A stretch of 50,688 bases of DNA from Bacillota bacterium (GTDB taxonomy: Bacteria > Bacillota > Clostridia > Christensenellales > DTU072). Numbering within the stretch: the first letter of the stretch is position 1; each line of letters begins with the position of its first letter. Positions 42,983 through 50,688 of this stretch are shown here, piece after piece. The DNA lies in assembly GCA_044426075.1 (NCBI GenBank), contig JAWXUT010000001.1, positions 1 through 50,688 of the forward strand, given 5' to 3'. The position numbers and the translations under genes were made by a program. The notes beneath the pieces are model-generated. The model was not told where the DNA came from and made no database searches. It saw only the letters and a list, made by a program, of their open reading frames with translations.

Positions 42983-43441
42983 TTATTTGTTAAGTGTTTC
43001 TATAAATCCTCTTACTGCTCCATTACCACCGTTATAGGCCGATACAAAATGCGCTACTTGTTTAATTTCTTGTACTGCGTCCTTTGGACAACCTACATAA
43101 CCGCATTGTTGCATAACTTCTAAGTCGTTTAAATCGTCCCCGATATAAGCAACCTCGCTCATATCTATTTTCAAATCTGAAACAACTTCTTTTAATTGGG
43201 GCAACTTATCGTGTATGCCTTGATAAAGCAATTTAATATTTAATTCTTTACATCTTTGCTCTGTGATTTCCGACTTACGCCCCGTTATTATGCAAGGAGT
43301 AATCCCAATTTGTGGCAATATAACACCTATTGCATAGCCATCTTTTACATTAAATGCCTTAACTGCCTCACCTTGCGAACCTATATATATTTTTCCATCT
43401 GTCAACGTCCCATCAACATCCATTACTAATAGTTTAATCAT
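42983..43441 (-). CDS. kdsC: 3-deoxy-D-manno-octulosonate 8-phosphate phosphatase (HAD-IIIA)
   Basis: LVMDVDGTLTDG nucleophile motif, ITGR, and GDDLNDL. 152 aa. Confidence 0.85.
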   Translation of the reverse strand: MIKLLVMDVDGTLTDGKIYIGSQGEAVKAFNVKDGYAIGVILPQIGITPCIITGRKSEITEQRCKELNIKLLYQGIHDKLPQLKEVVSDLKIDMSEVAYIGDDLNDLEVMQQCGYVGCPKDAVQEIKQVAHFVSAYNGGNGAVRGFIETLNK

Positions 43442-44430
43442 TATTGCAACATTCCTATCTTTATAATATCATACACGCACAATGTGCCCGTTAAAAGCCC
43501 TTCATTGTTTAATACTGGTAATACTGAAACTTTTGTTTTAAAAGATTTATCCGTTTTCTTTTGTATGTCTGCAACTATGTCGAAAATCAATGTTTCTTCT
43601 TGTACTGTGGTAGGATTGATGTTTATATAATTTATTATGGGTGCATTGTTATCAATCACATCACCACTGCTTATTAATCTTCTCAAATCGCCATCTGTGA
43701 AAATGCCTTTTAACGCGCCTTCTTTATCAGCTACGCAGACGCAACCTACAGGTTTTTTGCACATTTCAAGTATTGCATCTTGTAAGGTTGCAGATAATTC
43801 AACAACTGAATTTTCCTCTCCCTTTTTCATTAAATCGCTAGCTTTTAGCGTAAGCATTTTGCCAAGTAATCCATTTGGGTGAAAAACTGAAAAGTCCTTT
43901 TGTGTAAACTTCTTGTATTTAGCAACACAAACTGCAATTGCATCACCAACAACAAGCATTTGTGTTGTGCTAGATGTTGGCACTATATTTTCAAATAGTG
44001 CCTCTTCTACCTTTGGTAGAATTATATTTATTTGACATTTGCGAGCCAATGTATTGTTTTCTGAATTTGTAATGCTGTAAGTTTTTGCCCCTATTGCATT
44101 AATAGAGGGCATAATACCTACCATCTCTTCACTTTCGCCACTTTTACTAACTAAAACAACTAAATCGCCTTGTTGAACAACACCCAAGTCACCATGCAGT
44201 GCTTCCGCTGGGTGAAGAAAAAAACTTGCTATTCCTAGACTTGACATAGTTGCAACAATTTTTTTGCAAATGTGCCCAGATTTACCCATACCACACCAAA
44301 CAATTTTGCCTTTTGTAGTAACAATATCTTCGATTAACTCTTCAAAATTCTCCCACGAATAATCAAGCAATGATTGCAACTGTGATATTTCAAGTGCAAC
44401 AATATCATGCAAACTCTGCTTTATGCTCAT
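43441..44430 (-). CDS. kpsF: Arabinose-5-phosphate isomerase (KpsF/GutQ/KdsD family; SIS + CBS pair)
   Basis: SIS motif CGMGKSGHI and VSKSGESEE, followed by two C-terminal CBS repeats. Confidence 0.85.
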
Positions 44431-45203
44431 ATTGCCCCCTGGTTATTATGTAAGAATAATATTTGCTTTAGCAATGTTTCCATATCTTCTAGTCTAACCA
44501 TATTGGGCCCATCTGACATTGCATTGTCTGGATCTGGATGTGTTTCAATAAATAAGCCATCTATTCCGATCGCAACAGCTGCTTTTGCTAAATATGGAAC
44601 ATATTCACGATTACCACCAGTACTTCCGCCATTTCCACCAGGTTTTTGCACGCTGTGCGTTGCATCGAAAATTACGGGATATCCCATTTTTTTCATTTCT
44701 ACCAACCCAGTCATATCAACAACTAAATTGTTATATCCGAATGTTGTTCCTCGCTCACACAAATATATGTTTGAGTTCCCAGAAGCCTTTACTTTTTCTG
44801 CAACATTTGACATATCCCACGGTGCTAAAAATTGCCCCTTTTTGATATTAACTATTTTACCAGTTTTTGCTGCCGCCACCAACAAATCAGTTTGCCTACA
44901 TAAAAATGCAGGAATTTGTAGAATATCAGCAACTTCAGCAACTATTTCCGCTTGACAACTCTCATGAATATCTGTTGCTATTTTTAGCCCTAGCTCTTCT
45001 TTAACTTTTTTGAGTATGTTGAGTCCTTCCGCCATACCGAAACCGCGATAACCCTTTGTAGAAGTTCTATTTGCTTTATCAAAAGATGCTTTAAAATAAA
45101 AATCTATTTCCAATTTATCTGTTATTTCTTTTAATGTTTTGGCAATATTCATAACCATTTCTTCGCTTTCTATGACACATGGTCCTGCTATTAATTTAAA
45201 CAT
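44427..45203 (-). CDS. kdsA: 3-deoxy-8-phosphooctulonate synthase
   Basis: [36 protein letters not shown], and DATHSVQ motifs. Confidence 0.92.
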
Positions 45204-45928
45204 TTTTTCTCCTTAATAATTTTAGTTATACGCTCAAGGTCTTTTTGTGTATCAACAGCAACGGTATCTGATGAAACGATTCCGCATCTAACCTTTATGC
45301 CATTTTCTAAGAATCTTAACAGCTCAATTTCTTCAATCTTTTCAATATCTCCCATTGGCAATTGTCCATATTGCAATAACGCAGCTCGCCTAAAGGCATA
45401 AACTCCTATAGGTTTATAATATGTATATCCTACCATACCTTTAGGATATGGTATAGGAGCACGAGAAAATAGAAGAATATCATTGTTTCTATCGCAAACA
45501 ACCTTTGGCGTTGTTGCGTTCACAACATCCACAGGATCTTTAAATGGTGTTTTTAATGTCGCACAGACAACTTCCTCGCTAGGAAGAATAACTCCTAATA
45601 CAGCTTCTATTGTGCTTGGTTCAAGCAATGGCTCATCGCCTTGAATTGTTATATAAATATCTGCTTCTATTTTGCTTGCAACCTCTGATAACCTTTCTGA
45701 TCCATTTTGATGATTTTTATCTGTCATAATGCAAGGGATATCATGGCTTTTACAAACGTTTTCAATACGCTCATCATCTGTTGCAACAATTGCCATATCT
45801 ATCTTTTTAACTTTTTTTGCTTGCTGATACACCCACCAAATCATAGGTTTACCACAAATATCTTTTAATGGCTTTCCTGGCAATCTTGATGATGAATATC
45901 TTGCTGGTATAACTGCTACTATTTTCAT
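45191..45928 (-). CDS. kdsB: 3-deoxy-manno-octulosonate cytidylyltransferase (CMP-Kdo synthetase)
   Basis: [17 protein letters not shown]-terminus and IQGDEPL motif. 245 aa. Confidence 0.9.
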
Positions 45929-49307: not shown

Positions 49308-49316
49308 AATTTACTC

Positions 49317-50678
49317 CTATTTGCTTGCTAGTTTTTTAACTGCACCGAACTTGCCTTTTTCTATTGCATGTACAAATGCAATGTCATTTTTAGAACCTAA
49401 TTTTTTTATTTCTGCTACGGTGTCTTTGTAGCTTATAACATTGAACATATCAGCTTTTGCTTTTATGCAATACTCGTTAAAAAACTCTTTTCTTATTTTT
49501 GTAAGGGCATATTTATGTGTGTGTACTTTACACAACTGTATTAAGCCCCTTGTTTGGTCAGTAAACTTCTTTCTTGATGACATATGTGTATCTAAATGCT
49601 TAAATATATCAAAATGAACGTATAGCCTTTGGTCATCTGCTGCTACATCTTGCCCTTCTCTTGCTAATCTATAGTAATACAAATATTCTGATATTGACAC
49701 AACTGAACGCGCAGAAGAATATATTTCAACCTTAAAAGGCAAATCATCAAATCTTGGCAAATCTGTATAGAATGAAATTTTTGATTGCTCGATTCTACTT
49801 CTTAAATAAATACCGCGCCAAATTGCAACTCGTAAACTTGCCATAAGTTCACGAACTTTTGCAGCATCTGTAACGCCATTACAATATGGATAACCGATAT
49901 TATCCTCAACTTGTACAATTTCGCCCGTATTTTCATATAAAAAATTAAATCCGCAGTGGCTAATTTCATAACTGCCTTGCATAGCTCTTGATAATAATTT
50001 TTTATACATTGTTGGGTCAATATAATCATCTGGATCTATAAAGCCGATATAGGTGCCTTGTGCCCTATCCATGCCATATTGCCTTGCTGAAGCACAACCA
50101 CCATTTTCTTTAGTTAGTAGTTTAATTCTGTTATCATTTTTTGCATATTCTTGCACTATTTCTGCACAATTATCGGGTGAACCATCATCAACAAATAAAA
50201 ATTCAATGTAGGGAGCTTTCCACGCAGTTACGGTTTCTATGCACTTTGGTAAATATTTTGCTATGTTGTACATAGGCAAAATTACACTTAGTTCTATATC
50301 CCTTTTTGTCCATGCTAAAATTTCGCTAGGCTTATCTATCCCCCAACCGAACAAATACATACTTTCGGCATATTCTCTAGCTTTTTCCCATACGCTAAAT
50401 GAACTTACATCATCACTATTCAATGTACCAACAATATGTTGTGGTTTAAAAAATTCTAGTTCATATATTATTGCATCTTCAGAATCGGGCGTATCAAAAA
50501 CAAAGGCATCGCAGTCTAAACTTTTTGCCTTATCTAGCCCATCACGCAACAAATATGTTATTTTTTTAGGCATATTAATTGTTTTATCAAATTCAGTTAT
50601 TTTTTTTAATTCTTGTTTTACATCTTTTAATTGTTCTTGCTCATTCCAAATTAGACATACTTCTGTTAACTTTGTCAC
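49317..50678 (-). CDS. Family-2 glycosyltransferase with an N-terminal extension of about 125 aa (5' end may lie outside the window)
   Basis: GT-A core SVILPMYN...FVDDGSPDN...IGFIDPDD (DxD). The listed GTG start at 50678 has no SD, and the frame stays open to position 50688. Confidence 0.75.
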   Translation of the reverse strand: MTKLTEVCLIWNEQEQLKDVKQELKKITEFDKTINMPKKITYLLRDGLDKAKSLDCDAFVFDTPDSEDAIIYELEFFKPQHIVGTLNSDDVSSFSVWEKAREYAESMYLFGWGIDKPSEILAWTKRDIELSVILPMYNIAKYLPKCIETVTAWKAPYIEFLFVDDGSPDNCAEIVQEYAKNDNRIKLLTKENGGCASARQYGMDRAQGTYIGFIDPDDYIDPTMYKKLLSRAMQGSYEISHCGFNFLYENTGEIVQVEDNIGYPYCNGVTDAAKVRELMASLRVAIWRGIYLRSRIEQSKISFYTDLPRFDDLPFKVEIYSSARSVVSISEYLYYYRLAREGQDVAADDQRLYVHFDIFKHLDTHMSSRKKFTDQTRGLIQLCKVHTHKYALTKIRKEFFNEYCIKAKADMFNVISYKDTVAEIKKLGSKNDIAFVHAIEKGKFGAVKKLASK

Positions 50679-50688
50679 TTTAAGAATA

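Follow-up and report, generated by a model that had tools for sequence, protein, structure and literature searches.

A CMP-Kdo operon on a Clostridia-like chromosome and a candidate family of Kdo transferases

The operon and its junctions

The window analysed here spans the whole of one contig (50,688 bp) from a MAG listed at NCBI as "Bacillota bacterium". It carries six tightly coupled minus-strand genes, encoding a GT2 glycosyltransferase, a protein of 1,122 amino acids, KdsB, KdsA, KpsF and KdsC (Table 1). The kds genes are located between a GH3 gene and the glycosyltransferases. The GT2 domain spans residues 131-258 of its protein (107 bits) and an additional N-terminal domain is present. 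This gene is considered 5′-truncated because its frame runs open up to the end of the contig and the N-terminus of its orthologue in a syntenic metagenomic locus (L007/L008) extends approximately 37 codons further.

The stop codon of the GT2 gene (TAG, 49319-49317) overlaps the AGGAG of the next gene, which lies 6 nt ahead of the ATG at 49307; the spacer between the two genes is 9 nt. The stop codon of the 1,122-aa gene (TAG, 45941-45939) likewise overlaps the AGGAG of kdsB, whose ATG is at 45928, with a spacer of 10 nt. The remaining genes overlap: 13 nt are shared by kdsB and kdsA, 4 nt (ATGA) by kdsA and kpsF, and 1 nt (TAATG) by kpsF and kdsC. At 9 nt past the kdsC stop lies a terminator-like hairpin, with a stem of 10 bp (5 G-C pairs), a loop of 5 and the T-rich tail TTGTTTG. 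A sequence-only reading of this DNA had described the chain of six genes, these junctions and a terminator 3′ of kdsC. All of the ORFs were recovered at the same positions, the junctions match the sequence and the hairpin lies where the terminator had been placed.

Table 1. Features of the operon and of the 1,122-aa protein
Feature	Position	Strand	Description and basis
Intrinsic-terminator-like hairpin, closing the operon	42950-42974	(-)	3′ of kdsC
kdsC	42983-43441	(-)	152 aa; Kdo-8-phosphate phosphatase, HAD-IIIA, YrbI family
kpsF/kdsD	43441-44430	(-)	329 aa; arabinose-5-phosphate isomerase, SIS + CBS domains (Pfam)
kdsA	44427-45203	(-)	258 aa; Kdo-8-phosphate synthase
kdsB	45191-45928	(-)	245 aa; CMP-Kdo synthetase, PF02348 cytidylyltransferase
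AGGAG RBS of kdsB	45936-45940	(-)	overlaps stop of 1,122-aa gene; sequence read directly
1,122-aa multi-module protein gene	45939-49307	(-)	ORF
DUF6270 domain	aa 846-1079, 46071-46772	(-)	Pfam PF19786
Charged, helix-prone, coiled-coil-like linker	aa ~785-840, 46788-46955	(-)	sequence, hydropathy
Degenerate second accessory-domain copy	aa ~596-784, 46956-47522	(-)	profile match, BLASTP
Alpha/beta accessory domain of N-module	aa 350-500, 47808-48260	(-)	AF2 secondary structure, conservation
GT-B core of N-module, candidate CMP-Kdo transferase	aa 1-345, 48273-49307	(-)	AlphaFold2, Foldseek, invariant residues
(K/R)XHP CMP-binding motif, K259-P260-H261-P262	48522-48533	(-)	alignment conservation
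AGGAG RBS of 1,122-aa gene	49314-49318	(-)	overlaps GT2 stop; sequence read directly
GT2 gene	49317-50678, frame open to 50688	(-)	PF00535; 5′-truncated at contig end

The Kdo pathway and its host chromosome

All four enzymes of the CMP-Kdo pathway, previously described as complete, score above curated NCBIfam cut-offs. KdsA exceeds those of the equivalog NF003543 (430 bits vs 242) and of TIGR01362 (422 vs 314), and KdsB those of the subfamily NF009905 (281 vs 255) and of TIGR00466 (180 vs 155). The KdsC/YrbI subfamily TIGR01670 is matched with 173 bits (cut-off 107) and the KpsF/GutQ subfamily TIGR00393 with 242 bits (cut-off 204). At the level of family membership, the operon is predicted to make CMP-Kdo, an activated "Gram-negative" sugar.

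The GC content of the six genes is 0.30-0.36, against 0.396 ± 0.017 in the other 29 ORFs (z = -2.0 to -5.6; GC3 z = -1.4 to -3.0), and the block is, as had been observed, richer in A+T than its surroundings. The nearest relatives of KdsA among 185,579 species genomes share no more than 65% identity and all belong to Gram-negative lineages. Both results support the earlier suggestion of horizontal acquisition, and the operon was probably acquired in this way, although polysaccharide loci often have low GC without having been transferred recently. In the flanks described as Firmicutes-type, yicC, gmk, coaBC, priA, def, fmt, rsmB, rlmN, rsgA, rpe, lgt, smc and ftsY are confirmed, and the nearest named relatives of PriA are Clostridia/Christensenellales MAGs. 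The host is probably a monoderm bacterium of the class Clostridia.

The operon could instead belong to a diderm Firmicute or another LPS producer, with the kds genes feeding Kdo2-lipid A and core synthesis and with the GT2 and the large protein acting as core or O-antigen enzymes. Kdo is found overwhelmingly in LPS, KdsA is closest to Gram-negative enzymes, and some Christensenellaceae are Gram-negative on staining. However, the 50.7 kb contain no lpx, waaA, lpt, bam or other outer membrane genes, and the absence of LPS and group-2 capsule genes from the stretch, reported previously, holds. The relatives of PriA are neither Negativicutes nor Halanaerobiales, the block's low GC sets it apart as foreign DNA on this chromosome, and the syntenic locus encodes a sortase and an LCP protein. 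Diderm Firmicutes embed kdsABCD in an lpx/waaA cluster, which in Negativicutes and Halanaerobiales takes the form lpxACDIBK/waaM/waaA (PMC5007114), whereas the kds genes here lie outside any such cluster. Judged from this one contig and the related loci, a role in LPS synthesis is highly improbable.

The 1,122-aa protein and its N-terminal module

At NCBI, a MAG protein with the annotation "DUF6270 domain-containing protein [Bacillota bacterium]" matches the 1,122-aa protein at 100% identity. The label of a "giant orphan", which the sequence-only reading had given it, is ruled out by an exhaustive search, in which 535 relatives reached E ≤ 1e-3. The ranges of the homologue matches reveal a fusion of a GT-B module, an accessory domain, a degenerate repeat, a coiled-coil-like linker and DUF6270. 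K442 and E456 are conserved in the accessory domain. The degenerate copy of this domain lacks KXHP; the middle of the protein is matched by positions 327-522 of the N-module profile (hmmsearch, E 1e-16) and the repeat is also detected by an internal BLASTP match. A hydrophobic stretch (aa 755-773) precedes the linker, whose coiled-coil-like character is proposed from its sequence and hydropathy, and from stand-alone homologues with long coiled coils at the equivalent position, rather than from a prediction tool. DUF6270 scores 61 bits (cut-off 27.5) and retains all of the family-conserved residues (G, C, R, D ... H-x-W-G ... H ... Y). Elsewhere this domain is fused to PS_pyruv_trans, GT8, GT61 and Hexapep domains, and a stand-alone DUF6270 gene on a Rossellomorea megaplasmid is clustered with glycosyltransferases, an ABC transporter and an LCP gene.

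The N-module (aa 1-500) belongs to a family without a Pfam model, which makes up approximately 33 of the best 150 matches, and no known glycosyltransferase family is connected to its sequence in Pfam or among PDB sequences. An AlphaFold2 model built from a 21-sequence alignment (pLDDT 89.1, pTM 0.87) has two Rossmann-like halves, and the predicted fold is GT-B. The best PDB match in Foldseek is the GT80 alpha2,3-sialyltransferase 4v2u (E 1.9e-5, probability 1.0); the GT52 enzyme NST (2yk5, 2yk6) is also listed, and all remaining matches are GT-B proteins. As the TM-scores are low (0.31-0.45), the description "sialyltransferase-like" is based on one top match together with the motifs.

Y99, E123, D247, K259 and H261 are invariant in the same alignment, in which K-x-H-P is invariant or nearly so. 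Of the 34 listed family members, about 30 have the core of this motif at the equivalent position; among the rest, one has K-R-H-L and in a few the script chose another K/R-x-H-P site. A Ser/Thr-rich loop follows 41-43 residues past the motif His. The (K/R)XHP motif binds CMP and is common to the sialyltransferases of GT29, 38, 42, 52 and 80 and the retaining Kdo transferases of GT99 and GT107 (PMC12887879, section 8).

The gene neighbourhoods point in the same direction. Eight loci have at least two visible neighbours (the window, L003, L004, L005/6, L007/8, L010, L095 and L093), and in all but L093 (7/8) a PF02348 cytidylyltransferase of the KdsB/NeuA family is encoded 1-3 genes away from the N-module gene. 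A GT2 gene adjoins the module gene in six. The adjacent cytidylyltransferases vary (KdsB-like, PseF-like, an RraA fusion) and, since the subtypes differ, the family probably uses several CMP-linked donors. The order in L007/L008 is GT2, N-module, CTP_transf_3 cytidylyltransferase, kdsA, kpsF and kdsC, with identities of 52% for the GT2 (full length, 478 aa there), 28% for the N-module, 75% for KdsA, 53% for KpsF and 56% for KdsC. This locus further carries an ABC-2 permease and ATPase, a GlfT2-like enzyme, Glf, a sortase and an LCP ligase, the last two being monoderm markers. Together with the family cut-offs and PriA, it upholds the core of the earlier reading, namely that a chromosome of Firmicutes type links glycosyltransferases with a complete CMP-Kdo pathway.

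We infer that the N-module is most likely the "missing" Kdo transferase and, as such, the leading candidate for the enzyme that links Kdo to a polysaccharide of the cell surface. The assignment of Kdo as its donor derives solely from the adjacency of kdsB. It is also conceivable, if unlikely, that CMP-Kdo is made but transferred by the GT2 or by a gene past the contig end, the large protein being a scaffold, a chain-length regulator or a transferase of another CMP- or CDP-linked substrate. Some homologues do adjoin cytidylyltransferases other than KdsB and teichoic-acid genes (Glyphos_transf, LicD, a TagD-like gene), and half of the protein, composed of degenerate repeat, coiled coil and DUF, resembles WbdD-type regulators. 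Against this, the constellation of KXHP, P-x-E and Ser loop is conserved family-wide, which argues for an active CMP-binding site and not a scaffold, and the link to PF02348 in 7/8 loci holds for any cytidylyltransferase subtype. CMP-ulosonic acids are not known as donors of GT2 (GT-A) enzymes.

The acceptor could also be a protein such as flagellin, pilin or an S-layer component, as in the pseudaminic and legionaminic acid flagellin islands of Clostridia, where CMP-nonulosonic-acid islands for flagellin modification are common. The 50.7 kb hold no flagellar, pilin or S-layer genes, the locus is without a Maf-type transferase, and genes typical of wall polysaccharides (ABC-2 exporters, Glf/GlfT2 and LCP ligases) are present in homologous loci. 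Protein glycosylation is considered very unlikely.

Proposed pathway and comparison with known systems

The current proposal, made with moderate confidence, is that the locus is the end of a horizontally acquired cluster for a monoderm wall or capsular polysaccharide, with a new candidate family of Kdo transferases. It would represent the promoter-distal end of a low-GC operon, in which KpsF, KdsA, KdsC and KdsB make CMP-Kdo from ribulose-5-P and PEP. Residues 1 to ~345 of the large protein would act as a GT-B enzyme of an uncharacterised family. CMP may be bound through K259-x-H261-P262, the P282-x-E284 loop and the S302/S304 loop, with an invariant acid of the N-domain (E123 or D103) as the likely base, and Kdo would be passed to the growing glycan. 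The anomeric outcome could be inverting, as in sialyltransferases, or retaining, as in WbbB, KpsC and KrkA. The upstream GT2 would add the neighbouring sugar, so that both enzymes may act in the cytoplasm to build the chain or cap it. The C-terminal half (repeat, linker and DUF6270) probably serves oligomerisation or membrane association, and probably also a second modifying or terminating activity. By analogy with L007/L008, a lipid carrier may serve for assembly of the polymer, which an ABC-2 transporter would export and an LCP enzyme would ligate to peptidoglycan; the 50,688-bp contig holds no transporter, LCP ligase or initiating enzyme, and this step is drawn from the analogy because such genes would lie past the contig end. 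The product would be a Kdo-containing wall polysaccharide, resembling teichulosonic acid, or a capsule.

Islands of kdsABCD in monoderm Bacillota have already been reported, and the new element is the candidate transferase. The known islands, in Bacillus coahuilensis m2-6 and two Hendrickia genomes (PMC4744853; PMC13249872), likewise combine a full Kdo pathway, low GC and adjacent glycosyltransferases without lpx. The B. coahuilensis-type island (GC 31.7% vs 38.0%, monoderm host) has been interpreted as horizontally acquired (PMC4744853; PMC13249872). It is IS-flanked, resides in Bacillus and encodes a KpsC-type (GT107) Kdo transferase, whereas the host here is a Clostridia-like MAG, the transferase would belong to another, uncharacterised family, and no KpsC or Capsule_synth domain was detected in a Pfam search.

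WbbB (GT99, coiled coil, GT1, GT25), KpsC (dual GT107) and KrkA (GT140 and a ribosyltransferase) are multi-module Kdo-transferase polymerases or terminators of ABC-transporter-dependent glycans. They share with the 1,122-aa protein a large cytoplasmic multi-module form, a GT-B module with an HP CMP-binding motif, a kdsB/kpsU-type gene alongside, a coiled-coil-like linker and, in homologous loci, an ABC-2 transporter. The Ser/Thr-rich loop is placed similarly (44 residues past the His in KrkA). However, no sequence similarity to the three is detectable, and their structures are absent from the top 50 Foldseek matches of the N-module. The Gln of QXXXD is missing (N-A-L-F-L-D247), the Asp lies 14 rather than ~34 residues before the His, and the accessory domain and DUF6270 have no counterpart in these enzymes.

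K-x-H-P is shared with the sialyltransferases of GT80 (Pasteurella PmST1/PdST), which include the best structural match, and GT52 (Neisseria NST). The acidic residue ~23 and the Ser pair ~41-43 residues past the His are placed comparably to PmST1, in which the counterparts are H311, E338 and S355/S356. Identity to the GT80 and GT52 enzymes is only 9-11%, the N-module matches neither PM0188 nor Glyco_transf_52 in Pfam, and its genomic partner is kdsB instead of neuA/neuB. It also differs in its extra 150-aa domain and its probable Gram-positive wall-polysaccharide context.

A parallel to the proposed product is found in the teichulosonic acids of Actinobacteria, which are Kdn-containing wall glycopolymers (e.g., PMC7831098). 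Like them, the product would be an anionic, LCP-attached monoderm wall glycopolymer built with a CMP-activated 3-deoxy-2-ulosonic acid. The teichulosonic acids obtain Kdn through NeuB-type synthases, whereas the operon described here, in another phylum, would supply Kdo through KdsA.

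Layout, composition and host of the operon

The six minus-strand ORFs of the operon occupy exactly the coordinates proposed by the sequence-only reading, and its tight spacing can be followed base by base. The stop codon of the GT2 gene (TAG, 49319-49317) lies inside the AGGAG (49318-49314) that precedes the ATG of the large-protein gene at 49307. In the same manner, the stop of the large-protein gene (45941-45939) lies inside the AGGAG (45940-45936) that precedes the ATG of kdsB at 45928. The kdsB and kdsA genes overlap by 13 nt, kdsA and kpsF share ATGA, and kpsF and kdsC share TAATG. 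The terminator claimed 3′ of kdsC was recovered as a hairpin. The gene upstream of the large protein is a GT2 with PF00535 at aa 131-258. Its frame stays open to the last base of the window, and its orthologue in L007, a metagenomic locus with the same gene order, starts approximately 37 codons further upstream. The window is the complete contig, so the operon is cut by the assembly; that it runs past the window edge had been supposed.

The gene set for CMP-Kdo had been described as complete, and all four predicted enzymes do exceed the curated NCBIfam thresholds: KdsA (430 versus an equivalog cut-off of 242), KdsB (281 versus 255), KdsC (173 versus 107) and KpsF (242 versus 204). The N-terminus of KdsA carries a Cys at the position linked to synthase class. 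We take this residue to denote the metal-dependent Kdo8P synthases of the Aquifex/Helicobacter type, as opposed to the Asn of the E. coli type.

A GH3 beta-glucosidase gene converges on kdsC and has a terminator of its own; the gap between the two genes contains a tandem repeat. Each unit holds an imperfect palindrome, TGTCAACGT(G/A)ACATTGACA, which occurs in five copies against 0.01 expected by chance and nowhere else in the window. The repeat has no Rfam match; an operator array and a repetitive extragenic element are both conceivable readings.

The A+T richness noted for the operon is borne out, with a GC content of 0.30-0.36 in its six genes versus a mean of 0.396 (sd 0.017) in the 29 other ORFs of the window (GC z = -2.0 to -5.6; GC3 z = -1.4 to -3.0). 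KdsA is at most 65% identical to any of the 596 confirmed homologues from species-representative genomes. Nearly all of the best 80 of these 596 belong to Gram-negative (diderm) phyla, including Bacteroidota, Pseudomonadota, Ignavibacteriota and Nitrospirota; these 80 also hold one MAG labelled Actinomycetota, and their sole Bacillota member is a diderm Negativicute (Phascolarctobacterium). The closest KdsA sequence overall is that of L007 (75%). This kinship and the GC deficit are compatible with genes that were acquired long ago or indirectly and now circulate among Firmicutes; low GC is also typical of surface-polysaccharide loci. The lowest GC among the non-operon genes (0.346) is found in a gene for a Schlafen AlbA_2 and HATPase_c_4 protein, which adjoins tRNA-Val and ileS and may be another acquired gene.

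The Firmicutes-like housekeeping flanks are present as described (yicC, gmk, coaBC, priA, def, fmt, rsmB, rlmN, rsgA, rpe, lgt, smc and ftsY), and the window further contains pckA, lysA, recR, dnaX, galT, galK, pncB, ileS, guaA and guaB. PriA has two relatives at 82-85% identity and next matches at about 60-65%; the matches with names (about 60%) come from “Clostridia bacterium”, “Firmicutes/Bacillota bacterium”, “Christensenellaceae” and “Christensenellales” MAGs.

The absence of lpx, waaA and kpsMTED-type genes reported earlier was also upheld. There is no lpx, waa, lpt or bam gene within the 50.7-kb window, and kpsMT, kpsED and kpsC/kpsS are all absent from it, the contig ending inside the GT2 gene. 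A WaaA (GT30) or LPS inner-core cluster was looked for in the window, where no Glycos_transf_N (PF04413) protein and no lpx gene beside the kds genes was found; the kds genes sit between the GH3 gene and the glycosyltransferases. In diderm Firmicutes, kdsABCD is embedded in a lpxACDIBK/waaM/waaA cluster (PMC5007114), whereas the kds genes here lie outside any lpx/waa cluster. This difference in placement and the lack of lpx, waa, lpt and bam genes over 50.7 kb favour a monoderm host, as far as gene content can indicate. The alternative that the locus serves an LPS core was dropped, as its kds genes keep no lpx/waaA/lpt/bam company in the window and the diderm arrangement differs.

Positions of features in the window and in related loci (L, contigs with homologues; P, homologous proteins)
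Feature	Location	Description
Operon	window 42983-50688 (-)	GT2, large protein, kdsB, kdsA, kpsF, kdsC
Large-protein gene	window 45939-49307 (-)	1,122 aa
kdsA	window 44427-45203 (-)	
Hydrophobic stretch of the large protein	window 46989-47045	aa 755-773
Terminator 3′ of kdsC	window 42974-42950	10-bp stem and T-rich tail
Tandem repeat	window 42682-42872	40-bp unit, 4.8 copies, 98% identical
Terminator of the GH3 gene	window 42634-42654	
AlbA_2/HATPase_c_4 gene	window 35337-36674 (-)	
tRNA-Val	window 31902-31977	
Cytidylyltransferase	L007 13046-14347 = L008 10304-11605	divergent PF02348 fused to RraA-like (class II aldolase / HMG-aldolase-like) domain
Recurrent cassette	L004 12257-16017; L005 5949-8200; L010 1330-4311; L095 12717-16465	
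Stand-alone DUF6270 gene	L096 8989-9705	CP128836.1, Rossellomorea sp. AcN35-11 megaplasmid
Coiled coil and basic tail	C-termini of P0002, P0004, P0005, P0013	loci L001, L004, L005, L009

Modules of the large protein

The large protein had been called an orphan. This does not hold, as an exhaustive HMMER search of 1.84 billion cluster representatives returned 535 proteins at E ≤ 1e-3; a word-indexed search had found one relative. The match ranges of the HMMER search suggest a three-part build. Approximately 33 of the top 150 matches cover aa 1-500 (the N-module), and these are typically stand-alone proteins of 510-580 aa without a Pfam domain. The middle (aa 504-840) is matched by essentially one protein, P0003, of 1,308 aa. 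The remaining part, aa 843-1100, is DUF6270 and is the source of most of the matches.

Since the N-module profile also matches aa ~596-784 of the same protein (E 1e-16), the middle region is a second, degenerate copy of the C-terminal accessory domain of the N-module. The middle of P0003 is a degenerate module as well, but a more complete one, from which the KXHP segment has been lost. The second copy ends in a hydrophobic stretch, LMSLGIEISVCAILGSALI, whose Kyte–Doolittle 19-residue mean of 2.04 is the highest in the large protein, which makes it a borderline candidate for insertion into a membrane or for an interfacial position. Residues ~785-840 are charged and helix-prone. At this place, the stand-alone homologues have a long coiled coil with a conserved basic tail, YPKGSKKRExxKKIAKFF, behind it; this is probably a membrane-association helix, as in ABC-transporter-dependent glycan assembly enzymes.

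The C-terminal part scores 61 bits against DUF6270 (PF19786), for which the Pfam gathering threshold is 27.5, and the family residues G, C, R, D ... H-x-W-G ... H ... Y are all present. Elsewhere, DUF6270 is fused to pyruvyltransferase, GT8, GT61 and hexapeptide-acyltransferase domains. A stand-alone copy on the Rossellomorea megaplasmid lies in a cluster with glycosyltransferases, a FkbM methyltransferase, DUF3880, a GT4, a nucleotide-sugar dehydrogenase, an ABC permease and ATPase, and an LCP protein. This cluster and the domain fusions point to DUF6270 as a polysaccharide-assembly or -modification domain; a literature search gave nothing relevant on it. Comparison of DUF6270 with the N-module by hhalign revealed no relation. 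The N-terminal “LGCCVSRD” of DUF6270 raised the possibility of an SGNH/GSCFA-like domain; a Pfam scan of 41 members at E ≤ 10 produced no such match.

The N-module and its genomic company

In an alignment of 21 N-modules, Y99, E123, D247, K259 and H261 are invariant and D103, S213, P262, P282, K442 and E456 are nearly so, with S302 kept in at least 90% of members. AlphaFold2 supplied with this alignment gave a model with a pLDDT of 89.1 and a pTM of 0.87. Folded from the single sequence, aa 1-550 reached a pLDDT of 32, too low for use. The predicted structure consists of a Rossmann-like domain (aa 1-125), a helical insert, a second Rossmann-like domain (aa 205-345) and an extra alpha/beta domain (aa 350-500). 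The model thus has the two Rossmann-like domains of a GT-B fold, and all of its significant Foldseek matches in the PDB are GT-B proteins. The top match is a GT80 alpha2,3-sialyltransferase of Pasteurella dagmatis (4v2u, E 1.9e-5, probability 1.0); the others include the GT52 sialyltransferase NST, UDP-GlcNAc 2-epimerases and GT1 enzymes. The TM-scores are low (0.3-0.45), as one would expect of a two-domain hinge fold with an extra domain, and the family-level assignment consequently leans on motifs as well.

The (K/R)XHP motif binds CMP in sialyltransferases of GT29/38/42/52/80 and in the retaining Kdo transferases of GT99/107; its His touches the phosphate of CMP, and KrkA has a Ser-Ser pair 44 residues further on (PMC12887879). 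In the N-module, the (nearly) invariant K259-x-H261-P262 is modelled after a beta-strand of the C-terminal domain. It is followed by P282-x-E284, 21-23 residues past H261, and by a putative counterpart of the downstream loop, rich in Ser/Thr (S302, S304), 41-43 residues past H261. The corresponding residues of PmST1 are H311, E338 and S355/S356.

A Pfam scan of the 21 N-modules at E ≤ 10 assigned no family, one member having a non-significant polysialyltransferase match (E 0.18). Searches of PDB sequences by phmmer and hmmsearch with the whole protein, the N-module profile and the DUF6270 profile gave chance matches only, and Foldseek against viral structures returned nothing significant. Taken with the predicted fold and the motifs, this lack of a Pfam or PDB sequence link indicates that the N-module is a GT-B transferase of the CMP-binding type and that its family is undescribed. 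When the N-module alignment was used for a word-indexed homologue search, P0002 alone was retrieved. A degenerate-pattern scan found no N-module in 185,579 species genomes and a single 1.2-kb contig in the JGI metagenomes, and none of 72,556 plasmids was matched by the N-module in tblastn.

Eight loci were informative, having at least two visible neighbours (the window, L003, L004, L005/6, L007/8, L010, L095 and L093); three further homologue contigs were too short and were left out of the count. A PF02348 cytidylyltransferase (KdsB/NeuA/PseF family) lies one to three genes from the N-module gene in seven of the eight, the sole locus without one being L093, of 2.6 kb. This genomic association is compatible with use of a CMP-activated donor by the N-module. 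A GT2 gene adjoins the N-module gene in six loci.

L007/L008 is a true syntenic counterpart of the operon. It contains, in sequence, a GT2 (52% identity to that of the window, full length), an N-module (28%), CTP_transf_3, KdsA (75%), KpsF (53%) and KdsC (56%). The cytidylyltransferase gene directly upstream of kdsA-kpsF-kdsC encodes the RraA-like fusion, with which the KdsB of the window has no tblastn match at E 1e-5. Further upstream lie an ABC-2 permease and ATPase, a GlfT2-like enzyme and additional GT2s; downstream are Glf, a sortase and an LCP (LytR-CpsA-Psr) ligase. No KpsC/S/E/D was found in L007, although an ABC-2 transporter is present there, as also in L005 and L095. The gene set of L007/L008 is that of a monoderm wall polysaccharide which is linked to peptidoglycan and depends on an ABC transporter. 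The combination of ABC-2 permease and ATPase, LCP ligase and cytoplasmic GTs recurs in L005 and L095; in the window, the contig ends before such genes come into view.

At four other loci, a recurrent cassette beside the N-module homologues comprises a KdsB-subfamily cytidylyltransferase (278 bits in L010 versus a subfamily cut-off of 255), a ~530-aa HMGL-like aldolase with weak similarity to 4-hydroxy-2-oxovalerate aldolase, and a HAD phosphatase. Many of them encode a further PF02348 protein, of PseF-like type. The cassettes lack KdsA and NeuB and may provide an undescribed route to a CMP-activated 3-deoxy-2-keto acid sugar.

Proposed function and relation to known Kdo transferases

Going by family membership, KpsF would convert Ru5P to A5P, KdsA would form Kdo8P, KdsC would release Kdo and KdsB would activate it to CMP-Kdo. 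The GT-B core of the large protein could then hold CMP-Kdo through the KXHP motif and the Ser loop and pass Kdo to a glycan acceptor, with the invariant E123 or nearly invariant D103 of the N-domain as candidate base. The translationally coupled GT2 would supply the neighbouring sugar. The accessory domains, the coiled-coil-like linker and the hydrophobic aa 755-773 may contribute to oligomerisation or membrane association, and DUF6270 may carry out a modification or terminating step. By analogy with L007/L008, an ABC-2 transporter would export the glycan and an LCP enzyme would ligate it.

Drawn together, these observations lead to a tentative proposal, which we rate at slightly below even probability: the ~500-aa N-module, with no Pfam model and no CAZy-characterised relative, founds a new GT family of CMP-ulosonic-acid transferases that serve the wall or capsular polysaccharides made by monoderm Firmicutes. 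In the present operon, it would transfer Kdo into a teichulosonic-type polymer in Clostridia. In the sister loci it would act together with a pathway not described so far, in which a KdsB-like cytidylyltransferase, an HMGL-type aldolase and a HAD phosphatase would yield a CMP-activated keto-acid sugar. DUF6270 would provide such polymerases with a second catalytic module.

Kdo is usually taken as an outer-membrane signature, and genome surveys use kds genes as diderm markers. Bacillus coahuilensis m2-6 carries a low-GC, IS-flanked kdsABCD island with a KpsC-type transferase (PMC4744853), and a 2026 survey reported kdsABCD in two Hendrickia genomes, describing such islands as horizontally acquired fragments of LPS biogenesis (PMC13249872). 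In Actinobacteria, ulosonic-acid wall polymers are known (Kdn teichulosonic acids). A literature search for Kdo with Christensenella, or for kdsA/kdsB with “monoderm”, gave nothing relevant. Given the earlier islands in monoderm Bacillota, Kdo genes in a Gram-positive have precedents. The novelty lies in the candidate transferase family, in the fusion of this family to DUF6270 and in the occurrence in Clostridia. The locus adds a Clostridia-type example to the few known islands. It also suggests a user enzyme of CMP-Kdo, from a rare GT-B family without a Pfam model that keeps KXHP and is encoded nearly always beside a KdsB/NeuA-type cytidylyltransferase gene. If the proposal is true, it would open to genetics the anionic, non-teichoic polymers in the walls of Clostridia from gut and rumen, polymers that may serve as phage receptors and immune ligands, and would urge caution against taking kds genes in MAGs as evidence of LPS.

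The known Kdo transferases fall into mutually unrecognisable GT-B families, GT99, GT107, GT118 and GT140, to which the N-module would add another deeply divergent family of ulosonic-acid transferases. Likeness to WbbB, KpsC/KpsS or KrkA was sought: the 21 members have no Capsule_synth or other Pfam match and no PDB sequence match, and the 50 best Foldseek matches include no structure of these proteins. Structurally, the N-module comes closest to an inverting sialyltransferase. In the retaining GT99, GT107 and GT140 enzymes, a QXXXD motif (nucleophilic Asp and carboxylate-binding Gln) precedes HP by ~33-34 residues, whereas the large protein has N-A-L-F-L-D247, with the Asp 14 residues before H261. 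Many N-module homologues do have Q-x-x-x-D right before KXHP, at the same short spacing (14, not ~34). As to the place of the sugar in known polymers, Kdo is a repeat-unit sugar for E. coli K13/KrkA, whereas for WbbB it is a chain-terminating cap.
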